From: an uncultured bacterium
Lineage (GTDB): Bacteria; Edwardsbacteria; AC1; EtOH8
DNA length: 64,000 nucleotides
Assembly (NCBI GenBank): GCA_963780225.1
Contig: CAWAAX010000026.1
Span: 13,403-77,402 of the forward strand
Direction: 5' to 3'
Part shown: positions 3,253 to 61,804 of the stretch, one piece after another
Numbering within the stretch: the first letter of the stretch is position 1
Layout of the letters: each line of letters begins with the position of its first letter
Notes under the pieces: generated by a model
Database searches by the model: none
Told to the model about the DNA's origin: nothing
The model's input: only the letters and a program-made list of their open reading frames with translations
Made by a program: the position numbers and the translations under genes

Positions 3253-3387
3253 CGTTCGGTTCATCTGAAAACACCACCGGATTAACCACGGAAGCACGGA
3301 ACAACTGAAGCCACGGAATAACTGAAATATTCCTCATTCAGTGTTTCAGTGGTAAAGGGAATATCATAAATATAATATTGGTAAACA

Positions 3388-4509
3388 ATGAAAAAAACAT
3401 TTTTCTCATTACTGGTCTTACTGCCGTTGCTCTGGTCCTCCGTCGCCCTGGCCACCCTTTAATGCGCCCAATGCCGGAAATGGATCACCGCCAAGGACAG
3501 TTACATCGAGCACGAGGGTAAGGTCTACTGCTCCCAAAAGTGCTTCGCCCAGGCCATGCCCAAGTGCGCCACCTGCGGAAAATCAATCGCCGACTGGCAA
3601 GGGACTGGCGGGCGGCTATGTCTATACCAAGGATAAATATTACTGTTCCGATGAATGCTTCCAAAAATCCCTGCCACTCTGCGCGTTCTGTAAAAAACCA
3701 ACCAAAGGCGGGCTGCGGTCTAACGAGGACCCCTCTAAAATCTACTGCTCCCAGGAATGTTATCAGACCACCCTGCCCAAATGCGCATTGTGCGGGACGG
3801 TCATGCAGTCCTGGACCGAGATCGAAGGCGCAAGAAATTCTGCGAAAGCTGCAAAAAACTTCCGGAATGCTTCAACTGCCAGAGGCCCGGGGCCGGCCGG
3901 GAGTCCAAGGACGGCCGCCGCTGGTGCGATTCCTGCATGGCGTTGGCGGTAATGGATAAAGCTGCGGCCCAGCAAATGTTCGAACAGATGCGCCAGGACA
4001 TCAAACAGCAGCTGGGAGTTCATACCGGAGACACCATCGCCTTTCATATGGTGGACGCCGACAGCCTGGCCCTTTTATTGGGGCACAAGAATTTTGCCGA
4101 GAGGGGTTTTTACCGTTATAATGTCCAATACACGGTGACAAAGAAGAAAGTAAAAAAAGTGACCCGGGAAATATTTGACATTTTCATCCTTTCCGGTCTC
4201 TCGCCTGCGAATTTCAGGGACGTGGCGGCCCATGAGCTGGCCCACGACATCAACTATCGTTATTTCCCCAAGGTCCAAGTCCAAAGGGAGGTGGAGGGCT
4301 TTGCCGAATATGTTTCAGCTTTGATGAACAAATACTGGGGCCAGGCCAAGGTCAACGAAAGCAAGATCCACAACCAGCAAAAGGAATACGCCGAGGCCTA
4401 CAAGTATTTTTTAAAGCTGGGAGAAAAGGGCGGACTGAATGCGGTGTGGGAACACATGGAACGGCAAAATCAAAATAAAAAAGCAAAAACAAAAAAAGAT
4501 CAAATGTGA
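3388..4509 (+). pseudogene. Disrupted gene: signal peptide, then four FCS/TRASH-like zinc-ribbon repeats (CxxC...YCSxxCF), then a C-terminal HExxH domain
   Basis: The signal peptide MKKTFFSLLVLLPLLWSSVALATL is followed by an in-frame TAA at 3460-3462. Repeat units KVYCSQKCF, KYYCSDECF, KIYCSQECY and KKFCESC follow. The frame goes from +1 to +2 near 3605 (a G-run) and back to +1 near 3830. The intact C-terminal ORF 3757-4509 carries AAHELAHD. Confidence 0.55.
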
Positions 4510-4522
4510 TCTAAAGAGCGTG

Positions 4523-5194
4523 ATGGTGCAAAACAATACTCGCTTAATTCTTGCATCCGCAGTTTGCTGTCTGCTGCTATCCTGCGGCAAGCCTGCCCAA
4601 CCCAAGGTATCCATGTGGGATAACTATGTTGATAGCGTTAAATACCGGATCCCGGAGAATGATTCCCTGGGCTACTTCAGCCTTTCTCCCGAGGGAAACA
4701 GGATCTGTGTGCTTTTCAAAAAAGGATCTCAATGGCACGTCATCATCAATGACAGACAATACGATACTTTTAAGGCAACCTTTAACGACAGTTTTGATCA
4801 AAAGCCAAAGGTGACAGTCAGCCCCGGAGGCCAAAGAGTAGGCCTGAGCTTTATCCGGAAAAAATCATGGCAGACCCGGTCCGAACTTCAGAAAAAAAGC
4901 AGTTCTTCTGTTGCCTCAACAGACACCAGCCAGTGGTATGTGCAGATAGACCAGAATATATTTGGCGGCTACGATGGCGATTTTGCCCCAAATATTATTT
5001 TCTCCCAAAGCGGCAGCACTTTCGGCTTCGTCTACAAGAAGGACGGCAAGTATTACGTGCAGGTGGGTGATACAACCTTCGGGCCTTATTTAAGGGCCGA
5101 TCTGGCGATCAACGAGAAAGAAGAAATTTACATTGCCTACATCAAAGAAGGTTATGCCAGCATCGAAAGGGTGGAGCAACTACCGGGCAGGTAA
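4523..5194 (+). CDS. Hypothetical lipoprotein
   Basis: ATG at 4523 followed by the lipobox-like LLLSCGK. No recognisable family. Confidence 0.55.
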   Translation: MVQNNTRLILASAVCCLLLSCGKPAQPKVSMWDNYVDSVKYRIPENDSLGYFSLSPEGNRICVLFKKGSQWHVIINDRQYDTFKATFNDSFDQKPKVTVSPGGQRVGLSFIRKKSWQTRSELQKKSSSSVASTDTSQWYVQIDQNIFGGYDGDFAPNIIFSQSGSTFGFVYKKDGKYYVQVGDTTFGPYLRADLAINEKEEIYIAYIKEGYASIERVEQLPGR

Positions 5195-6989: not shown

Positions 6990-7868
6990 CTACCGATGCA
7001 GTACCCTCTTGGCCAGGGCCGTGCCGCCGGCGCACCAATTCACCAGCCGGCTCCACAGGTCCTGCAGCCAGAACCAGGGGGAATCATGGTCGATTTTGTG
7101 CTTCAGGTCCCACAGGATGTCCGTAACATAGACCCCGCAGCGGCGCAGGGCGAAAAAGTCCGTTAGGTTGTTTTTTATGGGGGGCGAAAAACTGCAGGCC
7201 GAGAGATACCCGGCGTCAAGTGCTGCCTGCTTTACCGCTTCATTGTAAAGCCCGAAGGGGTAGGACAGGGTGGTCACCGGCAGGCCCAGGTTCTGTTCCA
7301 TCACTTTACGTGATCCCGCCAGCTCTTCTCTCAACTGCTCCGGACTTAAAGAACGCAGGTCCCGGTGGTTTTGGGTGTGGGAGCCGAACTCGATCCCGCA
7401 GGCCTGCATCTCCTTCATCTGTTCCCAGCTTAGGTGCCCAAACTTCAATCCGCCCCAGTTGATGTCCCAGTCATTCATTTTTCCTACGTAATCCGTGACC
7501 ACAAAGACGGTGGCGGTGAAGCCGTATTCCTTGAGCAATGGAAAGGCGTGCTGGTAAAGCCCGGCATAAGCGTCGTCAAAGGTCAGACAGAGGTATTTCT
7601 TCCCGCCGCAGTCTCCTTGTCGCATTAGTTCCACGGCCCGGGACAGGGTAACACTTTGGTAACCGTTCCGCTTGAAATAATCCAGATGCCCGGCAAAACG
7701 CTTGGGGGAGATCATGGTTCCGCCCAGCTCCAGCCGGGTATCCACCTTATGATAGGTCAGGATGGGAATGGATCCTTTGGCTGGCGGGCCGAAGCGCGCC
7801 TGCCAGAAAAAGTAGAGCAAAGCCCCGGCCAGGGCGAGTGACATTAGGAATATCATAAATATCTGCAT
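6990..7868 (-). CDS. Polysaccharide deacetylase family protein (NodB homology domain) with an N-terminal TM anchor
   Basis: NodB motif YLCLTFDDAYAGLY plus His-rich downstream motifs, and an N-terminal hydrophobic helix. Confidence 0.75.
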   Translation of the reverse strand: MQIFMIFLMSLALAGALLYFFWQARFGPPAKGSIPILTYHKVDTRLELGGTMISPKRFAGHLDYFKRNGYQSVTLSRAVELMRQGDCGGKKYLCLTFDDAYAGLYQHAFPLLKEYGFTATVFVVTDYVGKMNDWDINWGGLKFGHLSWEQMKEMQACGIEFGSHTQNHRDLRSLSPEQLREELAGSRKVMEQNLGLPVTTLSYPFGLYNEAVKQAALDAGYLSACSFSPPIKNNLTDFFALRRCGVYVTDILWDLKHKIDHDSPWFWLQDLWSRLVNWCAGGTALAKRVLHR

Positions 7869-8069
7869 TGTCTGAATTTTACCGCCTAAAGGCTCAGGTT
7901 GTCAACCAAAATATGATCTTGTTTTTTTGGTAAAACTCTTGACTTTTTATGCTCTTTGTGAAATAATTCACTTTCTGTGCTCCAAATATACCAATGGTCA
8001 TTATTTTTATTCTGACCGCGGTATTTAAGGGGCCATTCGTTCATTCTATCAAAGATACTATTTTATTTT

Positions 8070-8135
8070 GCCACAAAAAGCACAAGGGACACAAAATCGG
8101 AAAGAATATTTGTGTCTTGGTGTCTTTGTGGCACG
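8070..8135. promoter_or_regulatory. Imperfect palindrome upstream of the hydrogenase cluster; a second copy lies at 27176-27238
   Basis: GCCACAAAAAGCACAAGGGACACAAA, a 14-nt centre, then TTTGTGTCTTGGTGTCTTTGTGGC. A candidate -35 TTGACT is at 7943. Confidence 0.4.
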
Positions 8136-8169: not shown

Positions 8170-9255
8170 ATGCCGGAAAAGACGGTTTATTCGCTGGCCA
8201 AGGTCCAGGTGCCGGAGCTGATCGCCAAACTGCTGAAGTCCCAGAACGAGGTCTGGGCTCCGGTGAAGGGCGAGGGAGGCGACACCTTTTTGTCGCAGAT
8301 CGACTCGGCCAAGCAGATAGCCCCTGAATACGTCAACGGATTCCTGGGGGCCAAGCGCTATGTGTTTCCGCAGCTGGAGGAGCTGTTCCGCTTCAAGAAG
8401 GGCAAGAACGGCACTACTCTGGAAACGGAATCCGGCCAACCCCGGGCGGTGATCTGGGGGATAAGGCCCTGCGACATGTCGGCGGTTAACTATTTCGACA
8501 GCTTCTTTGGTCAGGGCGCCAAGTCCGGCCCGGACTGGAAATCGGGCGATCCTCTGCCGGACCCGTTATACGAAAAGAGGCGGGAGCGGGCGGTGTTCAT
8601 CACCCTGGCCTGCAACCAGGCCGGGCCGAAATGCTTCTGCGTCTGCACCGATTCCGGTCCGTTCCTCTCCAAGGGTTTTGACATCCAGTTGACCGACCTG
8701 GGCACCTATTATCTGGTTGAGGTGGGGAGCCCCAAGGGAGATGAGTTCGTCAAGGAGTTCAAGACCCTGTTCGGCACCGGGAACGAGAACGATGTCAAGC
8801 TCCGCCGGAAGCTGGAAACTGAGGCCGAGAAGACTTTCCAGCAGCCGGTAAGTTTCTTTGCCAAGGCCATGCGCAAGCTGGACGGCGGCAAGGTGGACCA
8901 GAAGTTCTGGGAGAAGGTGGCCGGATACTGCATCGGCTGCGGCGGCTGCATCTACGTCTGCCCCATGTGCAGCTGCTTTGACGTGGACGACAAGATGGAT
9001 TCCGATACCGAGGGCCTGCGCTACCGGGCTTGGGACACCTGCGACTTTGCCGGGTTCACCCGCGAGGTCTCGGGACACAACCCCCGGGCCTCAAGGGCCG
9101 ACCGCCGGAAACGCTGGTTCTACCACAAGCTGTCCATGGACTATCTGGAAAAGAACCCGGTGATCGGCTGCGTGGGCTGCGGCCGCTGCGTGGTCACCTG
9201 CCCCGGCGAGGTGGACATGGCCACGGTGGTGAGGTGGATGCGGAAGGTCGAGTGA
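8170..9255 (+). CDS. 4Fe-4S cluster protein, sulfhydrogenase beta (HydB) / anaerobic sulfite reductase AsrA-like
   Basis: Three Cys clusters (CNQAGPKCFCVC, CIGCGGCIYVCPMCSCFD, CVGCGRCVVTCPG). It pairs with the downstream PyrK-like flavoprotein. Confidence 0.7.
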   Translation: MPEKTVYSLAKVQVPELIAKLLKSQNEVWAPVKGEGGDTFLSQIDSAKQIAPEYVNGFLGAKRYVFPQLEELFRFKKGKNGTTLETESGQPRAVIWGIRPCDMSAVNYFDSFFGQGAKSGPDWKSGDPLPDPLYEKRRERAVFITLACNQAGPKCFCVCTDSGPFLSKGFDIQLTDLGTYYLVEVGSPKGDEFVKEFKTLFGTGNENDVKLRRKLETEAEKTFQQPVSFFAKAMRKLDGGKVDQKFWEKVAGYCIGCGGCIYVCPMCSCFDVDDKMDSDTEGLRYRAWDTCDFAGFTREVSGHNPRASRADRRKRWFYHKLSMDYLEKNPVIGCVGCGRCVVTCPGEVDMATVVRWMRKVE

Positions 9256-9258
9256 CCT

Positions 9259-9866
9259 GGGTTGCCCACTAAAACCCACGAAAAGGACGAAAAATAATTC
9301 ATGGTTTCGATCGGGGTTGCCCACTAAAACCCACGAAAACATTTACCATTTAAAATTCAAGGTTGCCCACGAAAAACACTAAAAGGCACGGAACATTTAA
9401 ATTTTACGATGGCTTGAAAAAACGCGGATAAAGTATATGAAGGTCGAATTATTATATAAAGATGAGAGCTATGCCATAATAGGCGCATGTTTCAATGTGT
9501 ATAAAAATATGGGGAGCGGATTTTTAGAGCCAGTTTATCAGGAATGCCTGGAAATTGAATTCGAAAGACAAAAAATTCCATTTGAGCCGCAGAAAGAACT
9601 TGCCTTAAAATACCAGGATAGAACATTAAAGCAAAAGTATAAGCCGGACTTTGTTTGTTACGGCAAAATAGTGGTGGAGATAAAAGCGGTAGAAAAGATC
9701 ATTGATGATCACAGGTCACAAATGTTGAATTATCTTAACGCCACCGGTTTTAAATTGGGCTTGCTGGTAAATTTTGGCCACCACCCCAGGATGGAAAACG
9801 AAAGATTTATCCTTTAAATAAAAATCCCGCTGAGCAGAAAAAATATTTTTTCGTGTATTTAGTGGG
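9259..9866. mobile_element. Small low-GC cassette carrying a GxxExxY gene, bounded by inverted TTGCCCACTAAA motifs
   Basis: GGTTGCCCACTAAAACCCACGAAAA occurs as direct repeats at 9260 and 9314, with a variant at 9361. The inverted copy TTTAGTGGGCAA is at ~9853. The cassette is about 40% GC between ~62% GC genes. Confidence 0.4.
9437..9817 (+). CDS. GxxExxY family protein (PD-(D/E)XK-like small protein)
   Basis: 126 aa with ...GSGFLEPVYQECLEIEF... and KPDFVCYGKIVVEIKAVEKI, the typical GxxExxY architecture. Low GC. Confidence 0.75.
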   Translation: MKVELLYKDESYAIIGACFNVYKNMGSGFLEPVYQECLEIEFERQKIPFEPQKELALKYQDRTLKQKYKPDFVCYGKIVVEIKAVEKIIDDHRSQMLNYLNATGFKLGLLVNFGHHPRMENERFIL

Positions 9867-9887
9867 CAAAACCAAAAGTAAGAGCCT

Positions 9888-12961: not shown

Positions 12962-13981
12962 ATGCATCCTCGTCACTATGTTTTGGGCATGTTCGCGGTT
13001 TTGTTGGCTGTTTGTATGGCATGCCCGCTTAATGCACAAGTAAAACAGCAAGGGACAAAGCAAACTGTTACGGCCAAGCCGGAAACGGTTTACGTGCAGG
13101 CAATCCAGCCAGAAAATACGAAGCAATTGGATAGAACAATAAGTGTTCTTAATATAATTATAACTGCAATTGGTGTTTTAGGTACAATCGTTACGTTGGC
13201 CTTTATGGTTGCAATTGCTCTAGGTTTTTTTGAAATAAACAAGTGGAGGGAGATTAGAGTACAAGCGGAGCAGCATAAAAAAGATGTGCAACAATGCCTT
13301 GAAGATATAAAAAAATATCTAGCTGTTGCAAAACAAGACAAAGACGAAATTAAAAAGACAAAGGAAGAAGCCGACGCTCTAATTGTGGGAATAAAACAAC
13401 TTTCGTTAAAGGAAAAACCATCGAAAGAAGTCAAGGCAAAGCTTGATGAATATGGGAAAAAGATAGAAATGCTTGAAGCCTTGGGTAGCCCATTGACGCC
13501 GGAAAATTATTATAACAAGGGAATTGACTTTTACTACAAAAGCAAATATGAGGTAGCTCTGAGTGCCTTTGAGAAAGCCATAGAACTTAAACCTGTATTT
13601 GCTCAAGCTTGGTGCAACAAAGGTGTCGTACTCAGTGAACTTGGGAATAACGAAGAAGCACTCAAAGCCCATGAGAAGGCCATAGAACTAAATCCAAATT
13701 ATGCCAACGCCTGGGACAATAAGGGCATTGTACTAAGCAAGCTGAAACGATATGGAGATGCACTTAAAGCACATGAGAAAGCAATAGTGATAAAGCCAGA
13801 TTTTGTAAATGCCTGGTTTAATAAGGCTTGTGTTTATTCATTAATGGGCGATAAGCAAAATTCCCTTATAAGTTTAAGCAAAACAATAAAGTTGGATTCT
13901 ACACGCAAAGAAGACGCAAAAAGTGACGAAGATTTTAAGACCCTATGGACAGACCCTGATTTTATAAAACTTGTAAGTTAA
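12962..13981 (+). CDS. TPR-repeat protein with an N-terminal signal/TM and a coiled coil; a low-GC insertion inside the hydrogenase operon
   Basis: Four or five TPR units (AWCNKGVVLSELGNNEEALKAHEKAIELNP, etc.). About 40% GC. Confidence 0.75.
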   Translation: MHPRHYVLGMFAVLLAVCMACPLNAQVKQQGTKQTVTAKPETVYVQAIQPENTKQLDRTISVLNIIITAIGVLGTIVTLAFMVAIALGFFEINKWREIRVQAEQHKKDVQQCLEDIKKYLAVAKQDKDEIKKTKEEADALIVGIKQLSLKEKPSKEVKAKLDEYGKKIEMLEALGSPLTPENYYNKGIDFYYKSKYEVALSAFEKAIELKPVFAQAWCNKGVVLSELGNNEEALKAHEKAIELNPNYANAWDNKGIVLSKLKRYGDALKAHEKAIVIKPDFVNAWFNKACVYSLMGDKQNSLISLSKTIKLDSTRKEDAKSDEDFKTLWTDPDFIKLVS

Positions 13982-16397: not shown

Positions 16398-16891
16398 GTA
16401 TGGCCGTGACCGACAGGGTAGACCTGCTGGCGAACATTGACGGAGGGTATTTGCAGTGTGGGACTAAGCACCGGGTACGTTTCACCGCACAATTTCAGGC
16501 TCAGGCCTTGGGATCCGGTATAATTTTGGATCACGACAGGTGGATGTTTCCATACATTGCGCCTAATGTTGCCGAGGCGATTCTGAGATGAGGTACAGCA
16601 ACTAAGAATTATTCATTCATGTTTATTGCAAATAGGATTCGTACGGAGAACTGAGAAGCCACCTGGTATTAGCTGCGGATCGAGATACGCGGGGACTGAT
16701 ATCCGGCCGTGCACAATCATTTTACGCAAGCCGGATGAAATGGCTGTTAGGGATTTCTACGAATGGCGGTATAATTCATCATATATTGCAAGATACTTAT
16801 AATGAAGGGCAAGAGGTTCCAATAATGCTTTGCAGACAGTTAACCTTTCAACAATGGCAACATAAAGCAACATCTTAAACAAAGGGATACA

Positions 16892-18208
16892 ATGACCAAA
16901 CAGGAAATACTCTCTTTACTAAAGGCCAAGCTGGGCACCGGATTCATCGCCCACAGCGAGCCTATTCCCGACCAGCTGTGGGTGGAGGTCAAGCCCCAGG
17001 CCTCGGTCCAGGCCGTGGAGATACTGCACCGCACCACCAAGGCCCGCTATCTGGTGAGCGTGGGCTCGGACGAGCGGGAGCTAAAGAAGCGCTTCGGGGT
17101 CTACCACCTGTTCAGCTTTGACAAAGAACACTTCTTCGTCACCATCGACGTCTCGGCCGACCCCCACAAGCCGGTGCTGCCCTCCATCACCAACGTCATC
17201 GCCGGGGCCAACTGGTCGGAGCGGGAGATCCGCGATCTGTTGGGCGTGCAGTTCGAGGGCCATCCCGATCCCCGGAGATTAGTTCTGGCCGATGACTGGC
17301 CGAACGAGGTCTATCCGCTGCGCCGGGACTTCGACTACAGTTCCAAGCCGCCCTCCAACCCGGAGAACGCCTATCCCTTCAAGGACAACCCGCCCAACAC
17401 CACGGTGGTGGCCATGGGGCCGTATTTCCCGGTGTTCGAGGAAGCCACCTATTTCCGGCTGTACGTCGAGGGCGAAAAGGTGGTGGACGTGGACTACCGC
17501 GGATTTTACGCCCACCGGGGCATAGAAAAACTGGGCGACGCTTCGCTGACCTACAACCAGATACCCTTCATCGCCGAGCGGATCTGCGGTATCTGCGGCT
17601 TCGTCCACAACGTCTCCTTCTGCAAATTAGTGGAACACGCGGCCGGGATCAAGGTCCCGCGCCGGGCCGACTACATAAGAACCATCATGCTGGAGCTGGA
17701 GCGCATCCATTCCCACGCCCTGTGGCTGGGGGTGGCCGGGCACATCATCGGCTTTGACACCGTGCTGATGCAGACCTGGCGGATGCGGGAGCCCATCATG
17801 TGGCTGTGCGAAAAGCTGACCGGCAACCGCAAGACCTACGGCATGAACCTGATCGGCGGGGTGCGCCGGGACATCACCAAGGCCCAGGTGCCCGAGGTCC
17901 GCAAAAAGATCGACGCCATGGACAAGGAATGGCAGGCGGTGCTGGACGCCGTCAAGGACGACACCACATTAAGAATGAGATTAGAGAAGGTGGGGATCCT
18001 CAACCGCGAGCAGAGCCACGAGTGGGCGGCAGTGGGCCCGGTGGCCCGGGCGGCCGACATCGACATGGACTCCCGCAAGGACCATCCCTACTGCGCCTAC
18101 GACGCGGTGGATTTCAAGGTGATCACCGCCGACACCAACGACGTCTGGGGCCGGACCGTGGTCCGGATCCTGGAAACAATCGAATCGTTCAAGATCGTCC
18201 GCCAATGA
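16892..18208 (+). pseudogene. Truncated tandem duplicate of the 5' 1.3 kb of the hydrogenase large-subunit gene
   Basis: 16892-18205 is near-identical to 18205-19518, with a few synonymous or conservative differences. The junction ..GTCCGCCA|ATGACCAAACAGG creates a TGA, so the copy ends before the C-terminal Ni-binding motif. Confidence 0.7.
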
Positions 18209-19884
18209 CCAAACAGGAAATCCTCTCTTTACTAAAGGCCAAGCTGGGCACCGGATTCATCGCCCACACCGAGCCTATTCCCGACCAGCTGTGGGTGGAG
18301 GTCAAGCCCCAGGCCTCGGTCCAGGCCGTGGAGATACTGCACCGCACCACCAAGGCCCGCTACTTAGTGAGCGTGGGCTCGGACGAGCGGGAGCTAAAGA
18401 AGCGCTTCGGGGTCTACCACCTGTTCAGCTTTGACAAAGAACACTTCTTCGTCACCATCGACGTCTCGGCCGATCCCCACAAGCCGGTGCTGCCCTCCAT
18501 CACCAACGTCATCGCCGGGGCCAACTGGTCGGAGCGGGAGATCCGCGATCTGCTGGGCGTGCAGTTCGAGGGCCATCCCGATCCCCGGAGATTAGTTCTG
18601 GCCGATGACTGGCCGAACGAGGTCTATCCGCTGCGACGGGACTTTGACTACAGCTCCAAACCGCCCTCCAACCCGGAGAACGCCTATCCCTTCAAGGACA
18701 ACCCGCCCAACACCACGGTGGTGGCCATGGGGCCGTATTTCCCGGTCTTTGAAGAGGCCACTTACTTCCGGCTGTACGTCGAGGGCGAGAAGGTGGTGGA
18801 CGTGGACTACCGCGGATTTTACGCCCACCGGGGGATAGAAAAACTGGGCGACGCTTCGCTGACCTACAACCAGATACCCTTCATCGCCGAGCGGATCTGC
18901 GGCATCTGCGGCTTCGTCCACAACGTCTCCTTCTGCAAGCTGGTGGAGCACGCGGCCGGGATCAAGGTCCCGCGCCGGGCCGATTACATCCGGACCATCA
19001 TGCTGGAGCTGGAGCGCATCCATTCCCACGCCCTGTGGCTGGGGGTGGCCGGGCACATCATCGGCTTCGACACCGTGCTGATGCAGACCTGGCGGATGCG
19101 GGAGCCCATCATGTGGCTGTGCGAAAAACTGACCGGCAACCGCAAGACCTACGGCATGAACCTGATCGGCGGGGTGCGCCGGGATATCACCAAAGCCCAG
19201 GTGCCCGAGGTCCGCAAAAAGATCGACGCCATGGACAAGGAATGGCAGGCGGTGCTGGACGCCGTCAAGGATGATACCACATTAAGAATGAGGCTGGAGA
19301 AGGTGGGGATCCTCAACCGCGAGCAGAGCCACGAGTGGGCGGCGGTGGGCCCGGTGGCCCGGGCGGCCGACATCGACATGGACTCCCGCAAGGACCATCC
19401 CTACTGCGCCTACGACGCGGTGGACTTCAAGGTGATCACCGCCGACACCAACGATGTCTGGGGCCGGACCGTGGTCCGGATCCTGGAGACCATCGAATCG
19501 TTCAAGATCGTCCGCCAGTGTCTGGACGCTTTAATGGAACTGCCGGAGGGCGACATCATCACCGAGATCCGGGACGAGATCCCGGCCGGGCGGATAGCCA
19601 TCTCGGCTGTCGAAGCGCCCCGGGGCGAGGACGTCCACTTCCTGCTGACCGGCGGAGACAACCGGCCCTACCGCTGGCGGGTGCGGTGCCCAACATATCC
19701 CAACTTGCCCACCGTGCAGGTGATGGTCAAGGGCGAGCAGGTGGCCGACGTGCCGATCATCCTGGGCTCCATCGATCCCTGCTTCAGCTGCACCGAGCGG
19801 ATGGAGGTCTGCGACCTGTCAACAGGCAAGGTCAGGATCTACAGCCAGGAGGAACTGTTTAACTGGACCGCCAAGCGCAGTTAG
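18205..19884 (+). CDS. hyfG: [NiFe]-hydrogenase large subunit, group 4, with fused NuoC-NuoD domains (HyfG/HycE-like)
   Basis: 559 aa. The N-terminus is NuoC-like (WSEREIRDLLGVQFEGHPD). It carries the proximal Ni-binding motif RICGICGFVH and the distal motif DPCFSCTERMEV. Confidence 0.85.
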   Translation: MTKQEILSLLKAKLGTGFIAHTEPIPDQLWVEVKPQASVQAVEILHRTTKARYLVSVGSDERELKKRFGVYHLFSFDKEHFFVTIDVSADPHKPVLPSITNVIAGANWSEREIRDLLGVQFEGHPDPRRLVLADDWPNEVYPLRRDFDYSSKPPSNPENAYPFKDNPPNTTVVAMGPYFPVFEEATYFRLYVEGEKVVDVDYRGFYAHRGIEKLGDASLTYNQIPFIAERICGICGFVHNVSFCKLVEHAAGIKVPRRADYIRTIMLELERIHSHALWLGVAGHIIGFDTVLMQTWRMREPIMWLCEKLTGNRKTYGMNLIGGVRRDITKAQVPEVRKKIDAMDKEWQAVLDAVKDDTTLRMRLEKVGILNREQSHEWAAVGPVARAADIDMDSRKDHPYCAYDAVDFKVITADTNDVWGRTVVRILETIESFKIVRQCLDALMELPEGDIITEIRDEIPAGRIAISAVEAPRGEDVHFLLTGGDNRPYRWRVRCPTYPNLPTVQVMVKGEQVADVPIILGSIDPCFSCTERMEVCDLSTGKVRIYSQEELFNWTAKRS

Positions 19885-19942: not shown

Positions 19943-20329
19943 GTGATGACGATAAAGAATTTTGAAGATCTAAAAATATGGCAAGTAGCCAAACAGTTAA
20001 CAAAACAGGTTTATTCGGCAGTCAACTTACAGAAATATAACCGGGATTATTCACTGGTTGACCAGACAAGGCGGGCATCGGTTTCAATCATGGCCAATAT
20101 CGCTGAAGGTTTTGAAAGGGAGAACAACAAGGAGTTCATTCAATACTTGTATATTGCCAAAGGATCTTGCGGGGAGTTGAGGAGCCATTTGTGGATCGCT
20201 CAGGAATTGATGTTTCTGACCGAGGTTGAAGGTAAAACTTTAAGAGAAGAAGCTGCCGGGCTATCAATCATGATTGCAAAGTTGATAATGTACCTAAAAA
20301 CCTCGCCCATTAAGGGATTCAAACAGTAA
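19943..20329 (+). CDS. Four-helix-bundle protein (23S rRNA intervening-sequence protein / Avd-like family), copy 1
   Basis: 128 aa with ..RDYSLVDQTRRASVSIMANIAEGFER..EFIQYLYIAKGSCGELRSHL... About 40% GC. It lies in the spacer between hyfG and the NuoH-like gene. Confidence 0.85.
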   Translation: MMTIKNFEDLKIWQVAKQLTKQVYSAVNLQKYNRDYSLVDQTRRASVSIMANIAEGFERENNKEFIQYLYIAKGSCGELRSHLWIAQELMFLTEVEGKTLREEAAGLSIMIAKLIMYLKTSPIKGFKQ

Positions 20330-21242: not shown

Positions 21243-21715
21243 AGTTTACAATTTACAGTTTAAAAGTTTGTTTGAATAACGCAAGGAGGTTTGTATGGGT
21301 ACGTTCAGAAAGTTTGAGGACATTACCGCTTGGCAAAAAGCGCGCGAGTTGACAAAGTTGGTTTACGAAATCACTAAGGACGGAAGTTTTTCAAAGGATT
21401 TTGGCCTGCGAGATCAAATAAGAAGAGCCGCTGTTTCTATGATGTCCAACATTGCAGAAGGGTTTGACAGGGGCGGCAGAAAAGAATTTATTCAGTTTTT
21501 ATCAATAGCCAAAGGCTCCACTGGCGAGGTCAAAAGCCAATTGTATATCGCATTGGACCAAAATTACATTACCAAAGATTTATTCGATAAAACATTTTCC
21601 TTGGCAGAGGAAGTCAATCGTTTGATCTTTAGTTTGATAAAGTACCTGGGAAATACTGAAATTAAGGGAATAAAATATAAAGTTAACTGATTACAATAAC
21701 TGTAAATTGTAAACA
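21243..21715. mobile_element. Four-helix-bundle gene cassette (copy 2), flanked by inverted repeats
   Basis: AGTTTACAATTTACAG at 21243-21258 and its inverse CTGTAAATTGTAAAC at 21701-21715 bracket the 4HB ORF. A related GTTTACAATTTACG lies upstream of copy 1 at 19921. Confidence 0.4.
21295..21690 (+). CDS. Four-helix-bundle protein (23S rRNA IVS/Avd-like), copy 2
   Basis: 131 aa with ..KDFGLRDQIRRAAVSMMSNIAEGFDR..EFIQFLSIAKGSTGEVKSQL.., a paralogue of copy 1. Confidence 0.85.
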   Translation: MGTFRKFEDITAWQKARELTKLVYEITKDGSFSKDFGLRDQIRRAAVSMMSNIAEGFDRGGRKEFIQFLSIAKGSTGEVKSQLYIALDQNYITKDLFDKTFSLAEEVNRLIFSLIKYLGNTEIKGIKYKVN

Positions 21716-22387: not shown

Positions 22388-22750
22388 GTGAGTATGGAAT
22401 TGAAATTCGAGAAACTGGAAGTATGGCGGATATCGCTGGAATGCATAGATAAGGTCTATGCGCTTTTGGAAAAATATCCCCGGTCCGAAGAATATATCCT
22501 AAAACAGCAAGGCAAGCGCTCCATAACCTCGGTCTCTCTGAACATTGCCGAAGGCAGCTGCAAGCACACCCAAAGGGAATTTGCCTATTTTGTAAATATT
22601 TCCATAGGCTCCCTGGTGGAAACCCTGGCCAATCTGAAAATAGGTCTGCAAAGAAAATACATCACTGACGCAGACTTTAAAGGCATTGAGCCCTTGCTGG
22701 ATAAAATGTATTTCAAGCTGATGGCTCTGGAAAAGGCCCTGCGGAAATAG
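22388..22750 (+). CDS. Four-helix-bundle protein (23S rRNA IVS/Avd-like), copy 3 (more diverged)
   Basis: 120 aa with ..KRSITSVSLNIAEGSCKHTQREFAYFVNISIGSLVETLANL... Low GC. Confidence 0.8.
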   Translation: MSMELKFEKLEVWRISLECIDKVYALLEKYPRSEEYILKQQGKRSITSVSLNIAEGSCKHTQREFAYFVNISIGSLVETLANLKIGLQRKYITDADFKGIEPLLDKMYFKLMALEKALRK

Positions 22751-48035: not shown

Positions 48036-48100
48036 CCCGCCACACTTCGACTAAGCTCAGTGTCCGGCGGGGGGCTTTCTTGTTTTTTTTAATTACCTAA
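48036..48100 (+). terminator. Rho-independent terminator
   Basis: GCCCCCCGCC...GGCGGGGGGC followed by a T8 run. Confidence 0.6.
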
Positions 48101-48142
48101 ATGTTTTCGCGACTTTTAGTGCCCTTTAGTGGGAAAGCTATC

Positions 48143-53039: not shown

Positions 53040-53135
53040 GGTTAATAACCAGGAGGAGTGTCATTCCTGCGAAAGCAGGAATCCATTTATTTTCTGGATT
53101 CCCGCCTGCGCGGGAATGACAATGAAAAGCACGAA
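53040..53135. repeat. Nested hairpins of ATTCC(C)-N8-(G)GGAAT type between the leuB-like and fusion genes
   Basis: GTCATTCCtgcgaaagcaGGAATC...GATTCCCgcctgcgcGGGAATGAC. Confidence 0.4.
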
Positions 53136-56048: not shown

Positions 56049-56561
56049 ATGAAAAAGCATAGTGGGATGAGACCCCATGACATTGTAGTATTACTAAAAA
56101 TATCCTCAAAAAAAGAACAACCATGGCTGATGAAAGATTTGGCCATGGAGCTTGATATTAGCGCTAGCGAAGTAAGCGAAAGCCTTAATCGTTCCATGTT
56201 GGCGGGATTGCTGGCCTCCGATAAGAAAAAAATAATGCAGTCCGCCTTGCTGGAGTTCTTAAAATACGGTATTCGTTATGTATATCCGCAAAAACCAGGT
56301 TCAATAGTAAGAGGTGTTCCAACGGCACTTTCATATTTGCCATTGAAAAAGTATATCATTAGCAATGATGCATTTGTTTGGGCGTATGCAGAAGGTAACG
56401 TAAGGGGGCAAAGTATTGAACCCTTGCATCCATCAGTACCCAAAGCATGTATGCGGGATAATAAATTGCATGAGCTTTTAGCACTTGTAGATGCTCTGCG
56501 CGTGGGTAAAATCCGGGAGCAAAATATTGCTATTGAGGAACTTGAAAGAAGACTTTTGTGA
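56049..56561 (+). CDS. Hypothetical winged-helix-like protein (possible AbiEi-like antitoxin); low GC
   Basis: It overlaps the downstream nucleotidyltransferase gene by 4 bp and is about 38% GC. Confidence 0.3.
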   Translation: MKKHSGMRPHDIVVLLKISSKKEQPWLMKDLAMELDISASEVSESLNRSMLAGLLASDKKKIMQSALLEFLKYGIRYVYPQKPGSIVRGVPTALSYLPLKKYIISNDAFVWAYAEGNVRGQSIEPLHPSVPKACMRDNKLHELLALVDALRVGKIREQNIAIEELERRLL

Positions 56562-57259
56562 TAAATAAAAGTAGTAATCTAAAAGCAATTGTTAAAATCG
56601 CAGAAGCGCTCGAAGAGTTAAAGGAAGAAGTAGTATTTGTTGGTGGGGCTGTCGTTGGTCTGTATGCTAACGATTCTGCAGCTGAAGATGTTAGACCAAC
56701 AAAAGATGTTGATATTATTGTGCATATCGTTTCTACTGTTGAATTGGAGAAGCTTAGATTGAAGCTTGTGGGAAAAGGCTTTAAACAAAGTCCTGAAGAA
56801 AAGGTTATTTGTCGGTTTTTATACCAAGGCATTAAATTGGATGTAATGAGCACTAAGGAAGTGGGGTGGGCACCTTCTAATTCATGGTTTGGTCCTGGTT
56901 TTAAACATTTAGAAAACCATAAAATTGGTGCTATAACCGTTAATCTATTACCATTGTCTTATTATTTAGCGACGAAATTTGCAGCTTTTCATGATAGAGT
57001 TGGTACTGACCCTCGCTTTAGCAAGGACTTTGAAGACATAACATATTTACTAGACAATAGGACTGATTTAGTTGAATCATTAACACGTGCGCCCGAAGAT
57101 GTAAAAAAATATTTGCATGTTGAATTTAAAAGAATACTATCAGATAAAATCCTGCAAGAAGCACTTATGGCAAATATGAGTCACCTAATACAAACAAAAC
57201 GTTATAAAATGGTAGAGTCAAAGTTAAAGGAAATTGTAAAGGATTTTAAACAAGGTTAA
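56558..57259 (+). CDS. Pol-beta-superfamily nucleotidyltransferase (AbiEii/MNT-like); low GC
   Basis: FVGGAVVGLY...RPTKDVDIIV matches hG[GS]...DhD. About 36% GC. Confidence 0.45.
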   Translation: MINKSSNLKAIVKIAEALEELKEEVVFVGGAVVGLYANDSAAEDVRPTKDVDIIVHIVSTVELEKLRLKLVGKGFKQSPEEKVICRFLYQGIKLDVMSTKEVGWAPSNSWFGPGFKHLENHKIGAITVNLLPLSYYLATKFAAFHDRVGTDPRFSKDFEDITYLLDNRTDLVESLTRAPEDVKKYLHVEFKRILSDKILQEALMANMSHLIQTKRYKMVESKLKEIVKDFKQG

Positions 57260-59094: not shown

Positions 59095-59256
59095 ATGCCA
59101 TTGCAAATCAATGGAAATTCTAAATATCAATATCGAAACTCTAAACAAACTCAAAATCATCAAATCTCAAATACTTCAAACTGTTTAGTGATTTAAACAT
59201 TTGAAATTAGTATTTGTTTAGGTTTTAGAGTTTTGAGTTTAGAAATTTGCAAAATT

Positions 59257-59608: not shown

Positions 59609-60901
59609 TTGAACGCTGCAAATAACGCCACTACCTTGATAAGAGAAGGCAGACTTTTTAACACGTTAAAGAAGTATTCGCAAGCTAAAACGTGCTTTAT
59701 AAAAGCTGCAGAACTGCATTACTCGTGTCATAACGATGAGAGCGCGAATTGGGCTTATGCGGCAGCTGCATATATGGCGATCATGAACAAGCAAATTGAT
59801 GAAGGTCTTGCCCTTTTGAACAAAGCCGCCCAGTTGGGTTATACAGATTTAGAGAAAATCAATGATTTGGCCAAAGTAAAGAACGGGACCAAATATTTAG
59901 GGGACCTGAAAACGTTCAGAAAAATCCACAAGAGAGTAAACTCTAACGCCAAGCCCATAGCCATTGTAAAATATGAGAATCAAAACATTGACAATTGGAA
60001 ATGGATGAGGTTTTGCGAAAAGACAGATTTGGACCGCTTCATGAAACGGTTGCCGCAGTTTAAGGCGTCAAGTGAATGGGATCTATTTATAAAGTGTCTT
60101 GATTGGGTAAATCAAAGTTTTTCCCATGACCCGGCAAACAAACCAAGTAATTCAAGTCCGGTGACCATTCTTAACGAGGCCCGGCAAAAGAAAATGTTTA
60201 CTTGCCAGGAGTATGCAATTCTTTTTGCCGCTGTAATGCAAACTCATCGCTATCCGGCACGGGTGATCGCTCTTCTGAAGGAAGATTATAGTTACGGTTC
60301 CGGAAAAGGGCATTGGGCAACGGAAGTGTGGAGCAATACACTGGATAAATGGGTGTTATTTGATCCGCAGAATAATTGTTATTGGAAAAGCGGCAAAGAA
60401 GCCTTGAATGCCATTGAAATAAGGGATTTTGTTTTAAAAAAGAAACAACGTCTTATGGCAGCTTATTCTAAAGGTAAACATTTGAGCGCCATGAAATCCT
60501 GGCTGGATCAATTCGCTGTTATTTGGTACTATAGAAATCAGAACTATTTTAAAAACTGGTCTTCTTTGTCCACGGTGGAAGAGTTGAGCAAATCCCCGGC
60601 CCTGCTTTTCCAAATGAAACCACGTTCAATGTTTAAGCAGCACACTGAACGTGATCATCTTTATCCAAAAATGAATAAAATAAACCATGAATGTCAAGTA
60701 ATCAAAGATAGGTTGTCATTCATTCTCGACAATTCATTTGCTTATTTTGAAGGTTACGAATTTAGCGTTACTGGCACATCCTGGGGAGATTGTCAAAGCA
60801 AATTATCGCTGTCTTTAAAACCGGGGAAAAACCAAATATTATTTAGGGCAAAAAATCAGGTTTCAAAACCAGTGGGTTTGTCTGTAGTTTTGGAAAAATA
60901 A
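59609..60901 (+). CDS. Transglutaminase-like cysteine-protease-domain protein with N-terminal TPR-like repeats; low GC
   Basis: Cys-His-Asp core: FTCQEYAILFAAVMQ..GHWATEVWSN..WVLFDPQNN. Confidence 0.55.
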   Translation: MNAANNATTLIREGRLFNTLKKYSQAKTCFIKAAELHYSCHNDESANWAYAAAAYMAIMNKQIDEGLALLNKAAQLGYTDLEKINDLAKVKNGTKYLGDLKTFRKIHKRVNSNAKPIAIVKYENQNIDNWKWMRFCEKTDLDRFMKRLPQFKASSEWDLFIKCLDWVNQSFSHDPANKPSNSSPVTILNEARQKKMFTCQEYAILFAAVMQTHRYPARVIALLKEDYSYGSGKGHWATEVWSNTLDKWVLFDPQNNCYWKSGKEALNAIEIRDFVLKKKQRLMAAYSKGKHLSAMKSWLDQFAVIWYYRNQNYFKNWSSLSTVEELSKSPALLFQMKPRSMFKQHTERDHLYPKMNKINHECQVIKDRLSFILDNSFAYFEGYEFSVTGTSWGDCQSKLSLSLKPGKNQILFRAKNQVSKPVGLSVVLEK

Positions 60902-61643: not shown

Positions 61644-61804
61644 TCGGGTTACTAAAACTTTACCACGGAAGCACGGAACATCCGAATCACGGAACTAAAA
61701 TCAAATACTCTAGTTTTATTTAATCTTCATCTTTCCGTGTTTCGGTGGTTAGCTCCGGTTAATATCATTTTCATCATTCAAACAACTCCTTCTAAGGAAA
61801 CAGT

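Follow-up and report, generated by a model that had tools for sequence, protein, structure and literature searches.

A predicted nuclease gene bracketed by mirror-image arms of short tandem repeats between two hydrogenase-type genes

Two hydrogenase-type genes that are normally adjacent are separated, in a genome of Candidatus Edwardsbacteria (UBP2), by a short stretch of DNA that carries repeats in both orientations and a small low-GC ORF. The question raised by this locus is whether the stretch is a mobile cassette, and if so of what kind. It was examined within a 64,000-nucleotide stretch of DNA, referred to here as the window, and related loci are designated by L numbers. A reading made from the sequence alone had described a GxxExxY-protein cassette with terminal inverted motifs, of foreign composition, splitting a normally adjacent gene pair and representing the same phenomenon as four-helix-bundle cassettes.

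The described arrangement was confirmed. The 25-mer GGTTGCCCACTAAAACCCACGAAAA occurs exactly at 9260-9284 and 9315-9339, where 0 matches are expected by chance, and a degenerate third copy (GGTTGCCCACGAAAAACACTAAAAGGCACGGAAC) lies at 9361-9393. The inverse, TTTAGTGGGCAA, is present at 9858-9869 on the + strand. When up to 1 mismatch was allowed, the 12-mer gave 5 matches against 0.35 expected, and no shuffle reached 5. The inverted match proved longer than had been noted, with 22 nt at 86% complementarity between 9363-9384 and 9848-9869, and it runs out to GGTT/AACC at 9260-9263 and 9870-9873. The end coordinate first assigned to the element, 9866, cuts the right arm, and the element spans about 9260-9873. 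The same arrangement is present in two independent assemblies (L001, GCA_030655055.1; L002, UBA5202), so it is not an assembly artefact. The features of the locus, and of related hairpins in the window, are as follows.

8170-9255 (+): upstream host gene, a HydB/ShyB/AsrA-like 4Fe-4S subunit outside the cassette (PF17179 Fer4_22, E 1e-27; NCBIfam matches to ShyB, HydB and AsrA all below their curated cut-offs; GC3 0.84)
9260-9314 (+): outer left module, arm copy 1 (9260-9284, GGTTGCCCACTAAAACCCACGAAAA) followed by GGACGAAAAATAATTCATGGTTTCGATCGG, read as a decayed ORF-less hairpin (units, short loop, degenerate TTTCG)
9315-9360 (+): second left module, arm copy 2 (9315-9339, an exact 25-mer) plus an AT-rich tail
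9361-9393 (+): proximal left arm of three units spaced 9 and 10 nt apart, GGTTG CCCACGAAAAA CACTAAAAGG CACGGAAC, in the canonical family layout of units just upstream of the ORF
9437-9817 (+): cargo ORF of 126 aa, a GxxExxY protein, predicted as a minimal RecB/Cas4-like PD-(D/E)XK nuclease
9846-9873 (+): right arm, TTTTTTCGTGTATTTAGTGGGCAAAACC, the reverse complement of the left-arm units (two units), identical in L001
9888-10724 (+): downstream host gene, a HydG/AsrB-like FAD/NAD-binding subunit outside the cassette (PF00175, PF10418 and PF00970; NCBIfam matches below their cut-offs; GC3 0.86)
8069-8133 (no strand assigned): related ORF-less hairpin of the same unit type in the leader of the hydB-like operon, GCCACAAAAA GCACAAGG GACACAAAA and reverse complement, an inverted repeat with 30-nt arms and a 5-nt loop
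3283-3352 (no strand assigned): related ORF-less hairpin, ACCACGGAA GCACGGAA ... TTCAGTG TTTCAGTGGT, between two + strand genes (RNA fold z -2.1)
61655-61752 (no strand assigned): related ORF-less hairpin, ACCACGGAA GCACGGAA ... TTCCGTG TTTCGGTGGT (RNA fold z -4.1; 0 of 200 shuffles fold as well)

Because the profile matches of both neighbours fall below the curated cut-offs, the two genes are only 'like' the named families. A lone arm was also found at 48100-48137. The three left copies are best read as two decayed ORF-less hairpin modules plus the cassette's own left arm, and L001 has three full modules of ~56 nt at this place.

Profile searches assigned the ORF to the GxxExxY family (TIGR04256, 141 bits against a cut-off of 35, E 2e-41; PF13366 PDDEXK_3, 140.8 bits against a cut-off of 22, E 3e-41). 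The residues G28-x-x-E31-x-x-Y34 (the GxxExxY motif, G28-F-L-E31-P-V-Y34 in this protein), D71 (PDF), E81-x-K83 (E81-I-K83) and Q95-x-x-x-Y99 are invariant in 36 homologues, which is the full motif set of RecB/Cas4-type nucleases. A PDB sequence search found nothing (best E 0.49), and no sequence relative has a solved structure. An AlphaFold2 model (pLDDT 94) was therefore used for a fold search, in which the best matches were Cas4 SSO0001 (E 3e-4, TM 0.58), followed by LHK-Exo and lambda exonuclease. Nuclease activity was not assayed, and the function of the family is listed as unknown, with multiple horizontal transfers (PMC3424549). PADLOC gave only marginal hits (Cas4 E 0.016), with no significant hit to known defence-system models (best E 0.004), and PHROGs gave weak 'endonuclease' hits. 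An exact-sequence look-up of the window's protein and of protein P0001 found no contig on record, and the genomic context was obtained instead from protein P0002 and from a genome scan.

The sequence-only reading had itself conceded that it would fail if the motif occurred only here and only in direct orientation, or if GC and codon usage matched the host. Neither proved to be the case. Local GC falls to 0.36-0.40 against 0.58-0.65 on either side, and the ORF has a GC of 0.37 against about 0.60 and a GC3 of 0.43 against 0.84-0.91 in host genes. In nearly every related locus, ORF GC is about 0.1 below both flanks. A scan of one genome per species returned 520 relatives of the protein, of which the best 80 loci (60-97% identical) were kept; these come from Planctomycetota, Verrucomicrobiota, Acidobacteriota, Calditrichota, Marinimicrobia, Ignavibacteriota, Dependentiae and others. 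Together with L001 and the window, 82 loci were analysed by aligning the 350 nt upstream of each ORF to the reverse complement of the 250 nt downstream. In 65 of the 82 loci the bracketing inverted repeat scored z >= 5 against shuffles (median z 9.2), whereas 0 of 142 equally spaced, displaced control windows in the same loci did so (median 0.23).

The arms share a consensus across Planctomycetota, Verrucomicrobiota, Acidobacteriota, Calditrichota, Marinimicrobia and others. An outer (T)TG/AA is followed by CC(A/G)C(G/T)AA(A/T) and then by one to three further C(A/G)C(G/T)AA(A/T) units spaced 9-10 nt apart, while the downstream arm is the reverse complement; the arm usually consists of about three tandem CACGAAA-type units. 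The window's TTGCCCACTAAAACCCACGAAAA, built of CCCAC(G/T)AAAA units, is one variant of this arm. Forward units pile up within about 40 nt upstream of the start codon and reverse units within about 40 nt after the stop, with 282 forward units on the left and 237 reverse units on the right in the 400-nt flanks, against a background of 1.1-1.3 per kb. Besides the shared core, the two arms of a locus match each other better than arms of other loci (25.6 against 21.2 of 34 positions), and the own partner is the best match in 11 of 42 loci. There are therefore two layers of constraint, namely unit sequence and complementarity. A scan of viral sequences found 16 relatives, of which the closer ones (49-66% identical) have arm-like hairpin variants and low GC, while the distant ones (about 30%) have neither arms nor a GC contrast, so not every PDDEXK_3 gene is a cassette.

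A comparison of synteny with genomes that lack the insertion, which had also been put forward as a check, revealed that the spacer between the two genes takes several states among genomes whose HydG protein is 78-97% identical. It is empty, with 32 nt, in L083 (HydG 90% identical). In L183/L184 it keeps only a right arm, TTTTCGCGTGTTTAGCGGGCAA, homologous to that of the window and at the same place. In L082 (HydG 92% identical) it holds a 127-aa 23S_rRNA_IVP four-helix-bundle ORF, in L085 a four-helix ORF plus a secretion-tail gene, and in L084, which encodes the identical HydG protein, the secretion-tail gene preceded by a lone arm, GCCACGGAGGCACAGAGACACAGAGA. Three unrelated ORFs are present in L186, and the GxxExxY cassette is present in the window, L001 and L002. 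A distant relative, L185, has the two genes 79 nt apart. The junctions in relatives are replaced wholesale, including the last codons of hydB, rather than cleanly interrupted.

The proposed kinship with four-helix-bundle cassettes could also be examined. The window has three such ORFs (19943-20329, 21295-21690 and 22388-22750; PF05635, E 1e-24 to 1e-37; GC3 0.44-0.56), the second of which is flanked by a 20-nt, 95% inverted repeat of TTTACA(A/G) units. A metagenome scan with that protein gave 80 loci, and of the 76 that could be analysed, 52 have bracketing inverted repeats with z >= 5. These arms have a period of exactly 7 nt, with a mode of four units and a usual range of three to five, while periods of 5, 6, 8, 9 and 10 nt show only background. 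Examples are (GTTTCGR)n, (GTTTAAR)n, (CAGTCCR)n and (GGACTGA)n, each with its reverse complement downstream. Arm length is therefore about 28 nt in both cargo families, whatever the unit length. The four-helix ORFs at the hydB-hydG spacer (L082, L085) carry arms of CCCTAAA, CACGAAT and TCCGAAA units, closer to the GxxExxY type. A telomere-like polarity (C/A-rich 5' arm, G/T-rich 3' arm) was considered and rejected, since the window's four-helix subfamily has the opposite polarity while the L082/L085 four-helix cassettes share the GxxExxY polarity. Thus, the interpretation given by the sequence-only reading was supported in its four parts (terminal inverted motifs, foreign composition, splitting of an adjacent pair and equivalence to the four-helix cassettes), although it had missed that the arms are built of short tandem sub-repeats conserved across phyla and that the left copies include decayed hairpin modules.

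Evidence on expression and movement was then sought. No + strand promoter-like site lies between 9256 and 9436, that is, between the hydB stop and the ORF. Both neighbours are co-oriented with the ORF in 55 of 73 loci, with median gaps of 62 and 70 nt. The minimum-free-energy fold of 9256-9887 pairs 9262-9273, within arm copy 1, with 9858-9869 in the right arm (12 bp), plus 9 more pairs, closing the whole element; however, the fold z-score of the whole cassette is modest (-2.2). Cassettes 80-86% identical sit in unrelated flanks (L003/L007, L034/L057, L050/L071), and some cassettes are more conserved than their syntenic flanks (L020/L035, 91% against 76%). In L003, ORF-less hairpins flank the ORF on both sides and are multiplied in tandem with an 18-nt linker, and their loops keep ORF-start-like and ORF-end-like sequence, so that they are best read as internal-deletion derivatives. 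No excess of 3-6-nt direct repeats was found at arm boundaries in 42 loci compared with permuted partners, which gives no evidence of target-site duplication. The only ORF of the cassette is the 126-aa protein, and no recognised transposase (DDE, HUH, serine or tyrosine) is encoded; the element thus shares terminal inverted repeats with classical insertion sequences, transposons and MITEs but lacks these two other features. The 64 kb of the genome analysed holds one GxxExxY cassette, three ORF-less hairpins and one lone arm, all of diverged unit variants, a sample too small to tell whether near-identical copies are multiplied within one genome. Rfam found no family in the window and no rRNA match in 18 related GxxExxY loci.

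The explanation favoured here, with moderate confidence, is that the element is one copy of a widespread, very compact selfish gene cassette of the same kind as the ORF-bearing intervening sequences (IVS) of 23S rRNA genes, here lodged in a protein-coding operon. What the analysis demonstrates is a promoter-less ORF for a small RecB/Cas4-like nuclease, with two arms of about 28 nt that are reverse complements of each other and are each built of two to four tandem 9-10-nt CC(A/G)C(G/T)AAA units, filling the whole spacer between two co-transcribed host genes in their orientation, at a site that is a turnover hot spot in the lineage. The remainder is inference: the ORF would be expressed by read-through from the host operon, and in the transcript the arms would pair into a 21-28-bp stem that closes off the cassette, as the 28-bp stem of the Coxiella IVS does, which makes it a likely RNase III substrate and keeps the insertion cheap for the host. 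Spread and replacement at the DNA level would occur without target-site duplication, by recombination rather than classical transposition, and ORF-less hairpins would be internal-deletion derivatives. How the cassette moves, and whether the arms act in RNA or DNA, was not settled by these data. Pairing in the sense transcript is not demonstrated, since mismatches tolerable as wobble in the sense RNA number 40 against 31 antisense for GxxExxY arms (p 0.34) and 60 against 48 for four-helix arms (p 0.29), giving no strand-specific G:U signature. Moreover, a pure pairing constraint explains neither why the same 7-nt core is kept in every unit and across phyla nor why the arm is a tandem array, and the DNA-nuclease fold predicted for the cargo points to a DNA-level activity.

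These same points lend some weight to an autonomous DNA-level element, which is possible but held only tentatively. In this view, the GxxExxY nuclease, probably as an oligomer, would recognise the tandem units in its own arms, either as duplex or as a folded single-strand hairpin, and make the breaks that drive copying into new intergenic sites or into ORF-less hairpins, a homing or 'peel-and-paste'-like route without target-site duplication, with ORF-less hairpins as its non-autonomous (MITE-like) derivatives. The catalytic set is complete and invariant, the unit core is conserved in sequence and not just in pairing in both arms, arm type travels with cargo type (9-10-nt CACGAAA units with GxxExxY, heptamers with the window's four-helix subfamily), hairpins with the same units occur in the same genome and next to cassettes, sometimes in tandem, and some cassettes exceed their syntenic flanks in conservation, as homing elements do. 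However, four-helix-bundle cassettes have the same architecture but no nuclease, the window's ORF-less hairpins differ from the cassette arms (CCACGGAAGCACGGAA against CCCACTAAAACCCACGAAAA) and so offer little homology for repair, 126 aa leaves little room for sequence-specific recognition, no excised or circular forms and no identical copies at two sites of one genome were seen, and the junctions in relatives are not clean insertions. A host-serving module, in which the hairpin arms are an operon-internal processing or stability signal that uncouples hydB-like and hydG-like expression and the nuclease is a domesticated or defence-type passenger, is unlikely. The cassette is retained at 94-96% identity in three related assemblies, hairpins of the same unit type sit in leaders and spacers of other operons in the window, and heptamer direct repeats upstream of start codons have been proposed as a post-transcriptional regulatory network in Beggiatoaceae and cyanobacteria (PMC4679880); yet close relatives do without the cassette or carry unrelated cargo at the same spacer, its composition is strongly foreign, no significant defence-model hit was obtained, and the same package sits between unrelated genes in many phyla. 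Coincidence between REP-like host repeats and an unrelated horizontally acquired ORF can be practically dismissed, although the genome does carry several unrelated palindromic repeat families (for example 53059-53121), because the association of ORF and arms across phyla, with a shared arm consensus and none in the controls, already refutes it.

Among described systems, the closest is the ORF-bearing IVS of 23S rRNA genes (Leptospira; Coxiella burnetii IVS with the S23p ORF). Both are elements of about 430-630 nt with a small ORF bordered by complementary termini that form a stem, lower GC than the host, a sporadic and horizontally patterned distribution, no recognisable transposase and passive transcription within a host transcript (PMC4990558), and the S23p/four-helix-bundle family is the alternative cargo at this very spacer in L082. 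The present cassette lies between protein-coding genes and not in a helix of an rRNA gene, its cargo is a GxxExxY nuclease, and its arms are arrays of short tandem units with a cross-phylum consensus, a feature that the Coxiella paper does not mention. RNase III cleaves the IVS of Coxiella, Salmonella and Leptospira (PMC4990558), but excision by RNase III without re-ligation was not examined for this cassette. Thus, it may work like an IVS but cannot be filed as one, and the link to rRNA IVS is by architecture only; GxxExxY genes are reportedly placed in rRNA IVS by NCBI's family notes, a placement that was not verified here.

In RAYT/REPIN systems, a REP-associated tyrosine transposase gene is flanked by inverted REP hairpins, so that a single small gene is likewise bracketed by inverted copies of a short repeat that also occurs as ORF-less hairpins elsewhere in the genome. 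Here, however, the gene is not an HUH/Y1 transposase, the arms are tandem unit arrays rather than REP palindromes, and the cassettes are often multi-copy and sit inside operons. Free-standing homing endonuclease genes, for example in T4-like phages, are also nuclease ORFs inserted precisely between conserved, co-transcribed genes at sites polymorphic for presence, absence and alternative cargo, and the site studied here is indeed empty with conserved flanks in a close relative (L083); but homing endonuclease genes are not bracketed by inverted repeat arms, four-helix-bundle cargo shares the architecture without being a nuclease, and cleavage of the empty allele was not assayed. Integron gene cassettes share promoter-less, co-oriented small ORFs, each associated with an imperfect inverted-repeat recombination site whose structure matters more than its sequence, and some loci (L003, L073) show hairpin-ORF-hairpin arrays. 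This analogy was dropped because the arms lack the attC core sites (RYYYAAC, or R''/R' GTTRRRY) and there is no cassette array, the cassettes being solitary between housekeeping genes with arms that bracket the ORF instead of both lying downstream of it; no integrase or attI was seen among the genes annotated near the cassette, though no dedicated integrase search of the window was made. Tandem heptamer repeats (STRR; TAACTGA repeats) are known from Beggiatoaceae, cyanobacteria and Bacteroidetes as arrays of 2-6 heptamers of unknown function in intergenic regions just upstream of start codons, shared across distant phyla with no known transfer mechanism (PMC4679880), and STRR arrays reportedly occur inside the RNase P RNA gene of heterocystous cyanobacteria (Vioque 1997). 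They are described as direct repeats with essentially no inverted partner and no associated cargo ORF, while the present arrays come in reverse-complement pairs around an ORF.

A more far-reaching reading, which would be of considerable interest but is considered unlikely, is that GxxExxY and four-helix-bundle cassettes together form a previously undescribed class of autonomous mini-elements. The small cargo protein would bind the tandem sub-repeats of its own arms, one subunit per unit, as a ring-forming RecB/Cas4-like nuclease for arms of about three 9-10-nt units or a pentameric Avd-like bundle for arms of about four to five heptamers. That binding would drive hairpin-mediated copying, without target-site duplication, into transcribed spacers and into non-essential helices of structural RNAs, and the same process would be the origin of rRNA intervening sequences and of the tandem heptamer arrays of cyanobacteria and Beggiatoaceae.

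The individual cassette is one member of a very large family, GxxExxY proteins numbering in the thousands (7280 hits at E <= 1e-10). Literature searches for GxxExxY, PF13366, TIGR04256, PF05635 and related names, confined to open-access work, found no description of paired inverted arrays bracketing GxxExxY or four-helix ORFs. The family-wide architecture appears undescribed, comprising tandem-unit arms with a cross-phylum consensus, parallel heptamer arms for the four-helix family, ORF-less derivatives and a polymorphic operon spacer. The rRNA intervening sequences with S23p-type ORFs have been known for three decades, yet their origin, their mobility and the role of their ORFs have gone unexplained (PMC4990558). 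The present results give a handle on this old problem by providing both cargo families with a concrete, testable cis-element, in that each comes packaged with about 28-nt arms of defined tandem units, sits in operon spacers that turn over between close relatives, and leaves ORF-less hairpins behind. They also link three scattered observations, namely IVS, tandem heptamer repeats and 'hypothetical' small ORFs that split operons. For annotation, the architecture explains a common class of low-GC interruptions of conserved gene pairs and offers a simple sequence signature for finding them.

Three low-GC 23S_rRNA_IVP (four-helix-bundle) ORFs, at window 19943-20329, 21295-21690, and 22388-22750, were found between genes of one + strand membrane-complex operon. 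Each of these ORFs had its own arm type, namely GTTTGAA/GTTTACA units, TTTACAR units with a 20-nt, 95% inverted repeat, and GGCAAGGCGATGATGG-type repeats. A low-GC TPR gene (window 12962-13981; GC 0.39, GC3 0.35) was located between two Mrp/Nuo-like antiporter subunit genes. This gene was absent from the 91%-identical relative L001, in which a 47-nt spacer was present at that position, and no unit-type arms were evident in the short flanks of the gene. A further low-GC pair could be observed in a high-GC neighbourhood (window 56049-57259), which consisted of a 170-aa ORF with a weak winged-helix/repressor-like hit, followed by an overlapping 233-aa AbiEii-type nucleotidyltransferase toxin (PF08843 E 1e-7).

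Three ORF-less hairpins and one lone arm in the window were built of the same CCAC(G/A)(G/A)AA-type tandem units as the cassette arms, and were located in operon spacers and in the leader of the hydB-like operon:
3283-3352, ORF-less hairpin
8069-8133, ORF-less hairpin
61655-61752, ORF-less hairpin
48100-48137, lone arm

Another hairpin (window 59115-59247), with arms of CTCTAAA/TCGAAA-type units and their reverse complement, was located upstream of a low-GC transglutaminase-like gene (59609-60901). A different, REP-like palindrome family (TGTCATTCCTGCGAAAGCAGGAATCCA / GGATTCCTGC...GCAGGAATGAC) was also recurrent in this lineage, and was found at window 53059-53121, at 2366-2415 of L184 and at about 3350-3372 of L084, the latter two being loci from genomes that were compared at the hydB-hydG spacer; one copy was present inside the hydB-hydG spacer of L184. 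In addition, a 300-nt direct repeat at 98% identity was present at window 16890-17189 and 18203-18502, with the two copies 1313 nt apart. One copy starts at the start codon of ORF 16892-18208 and the other just before the stop of that ORF, so two successive coding stretches appear to begin with the same ~100 codons, although the start of the second gene was not determined.

Further features were observed in the related loci. At the same hydB-hydG spacer, another Edwardsbacteria genome (L186, 597-2488) carried two paralogous ~60-aa Cys-rich ORFs and a 420-aa ORF with no Pfam hit. In L044, a Pirellulales contig, two Acido-Lenti-1 sRNA matches (Rfam RF01687, 58 and 54 bits) were found in inverted orientation at 7660-7705 and 7808-7853, about 3.3 kb from a GxxExxY cassette. 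In L003, another locus with a GxxExxY ORF, ORF-less hairpins of about 100 nt (arm, loop, arm) flanked this ORF on both sides (3830-4000 and 4385-4615) and were tandemly multiplied with an 18-nt linker, while their loops resembled the start and end of the cassette interior.
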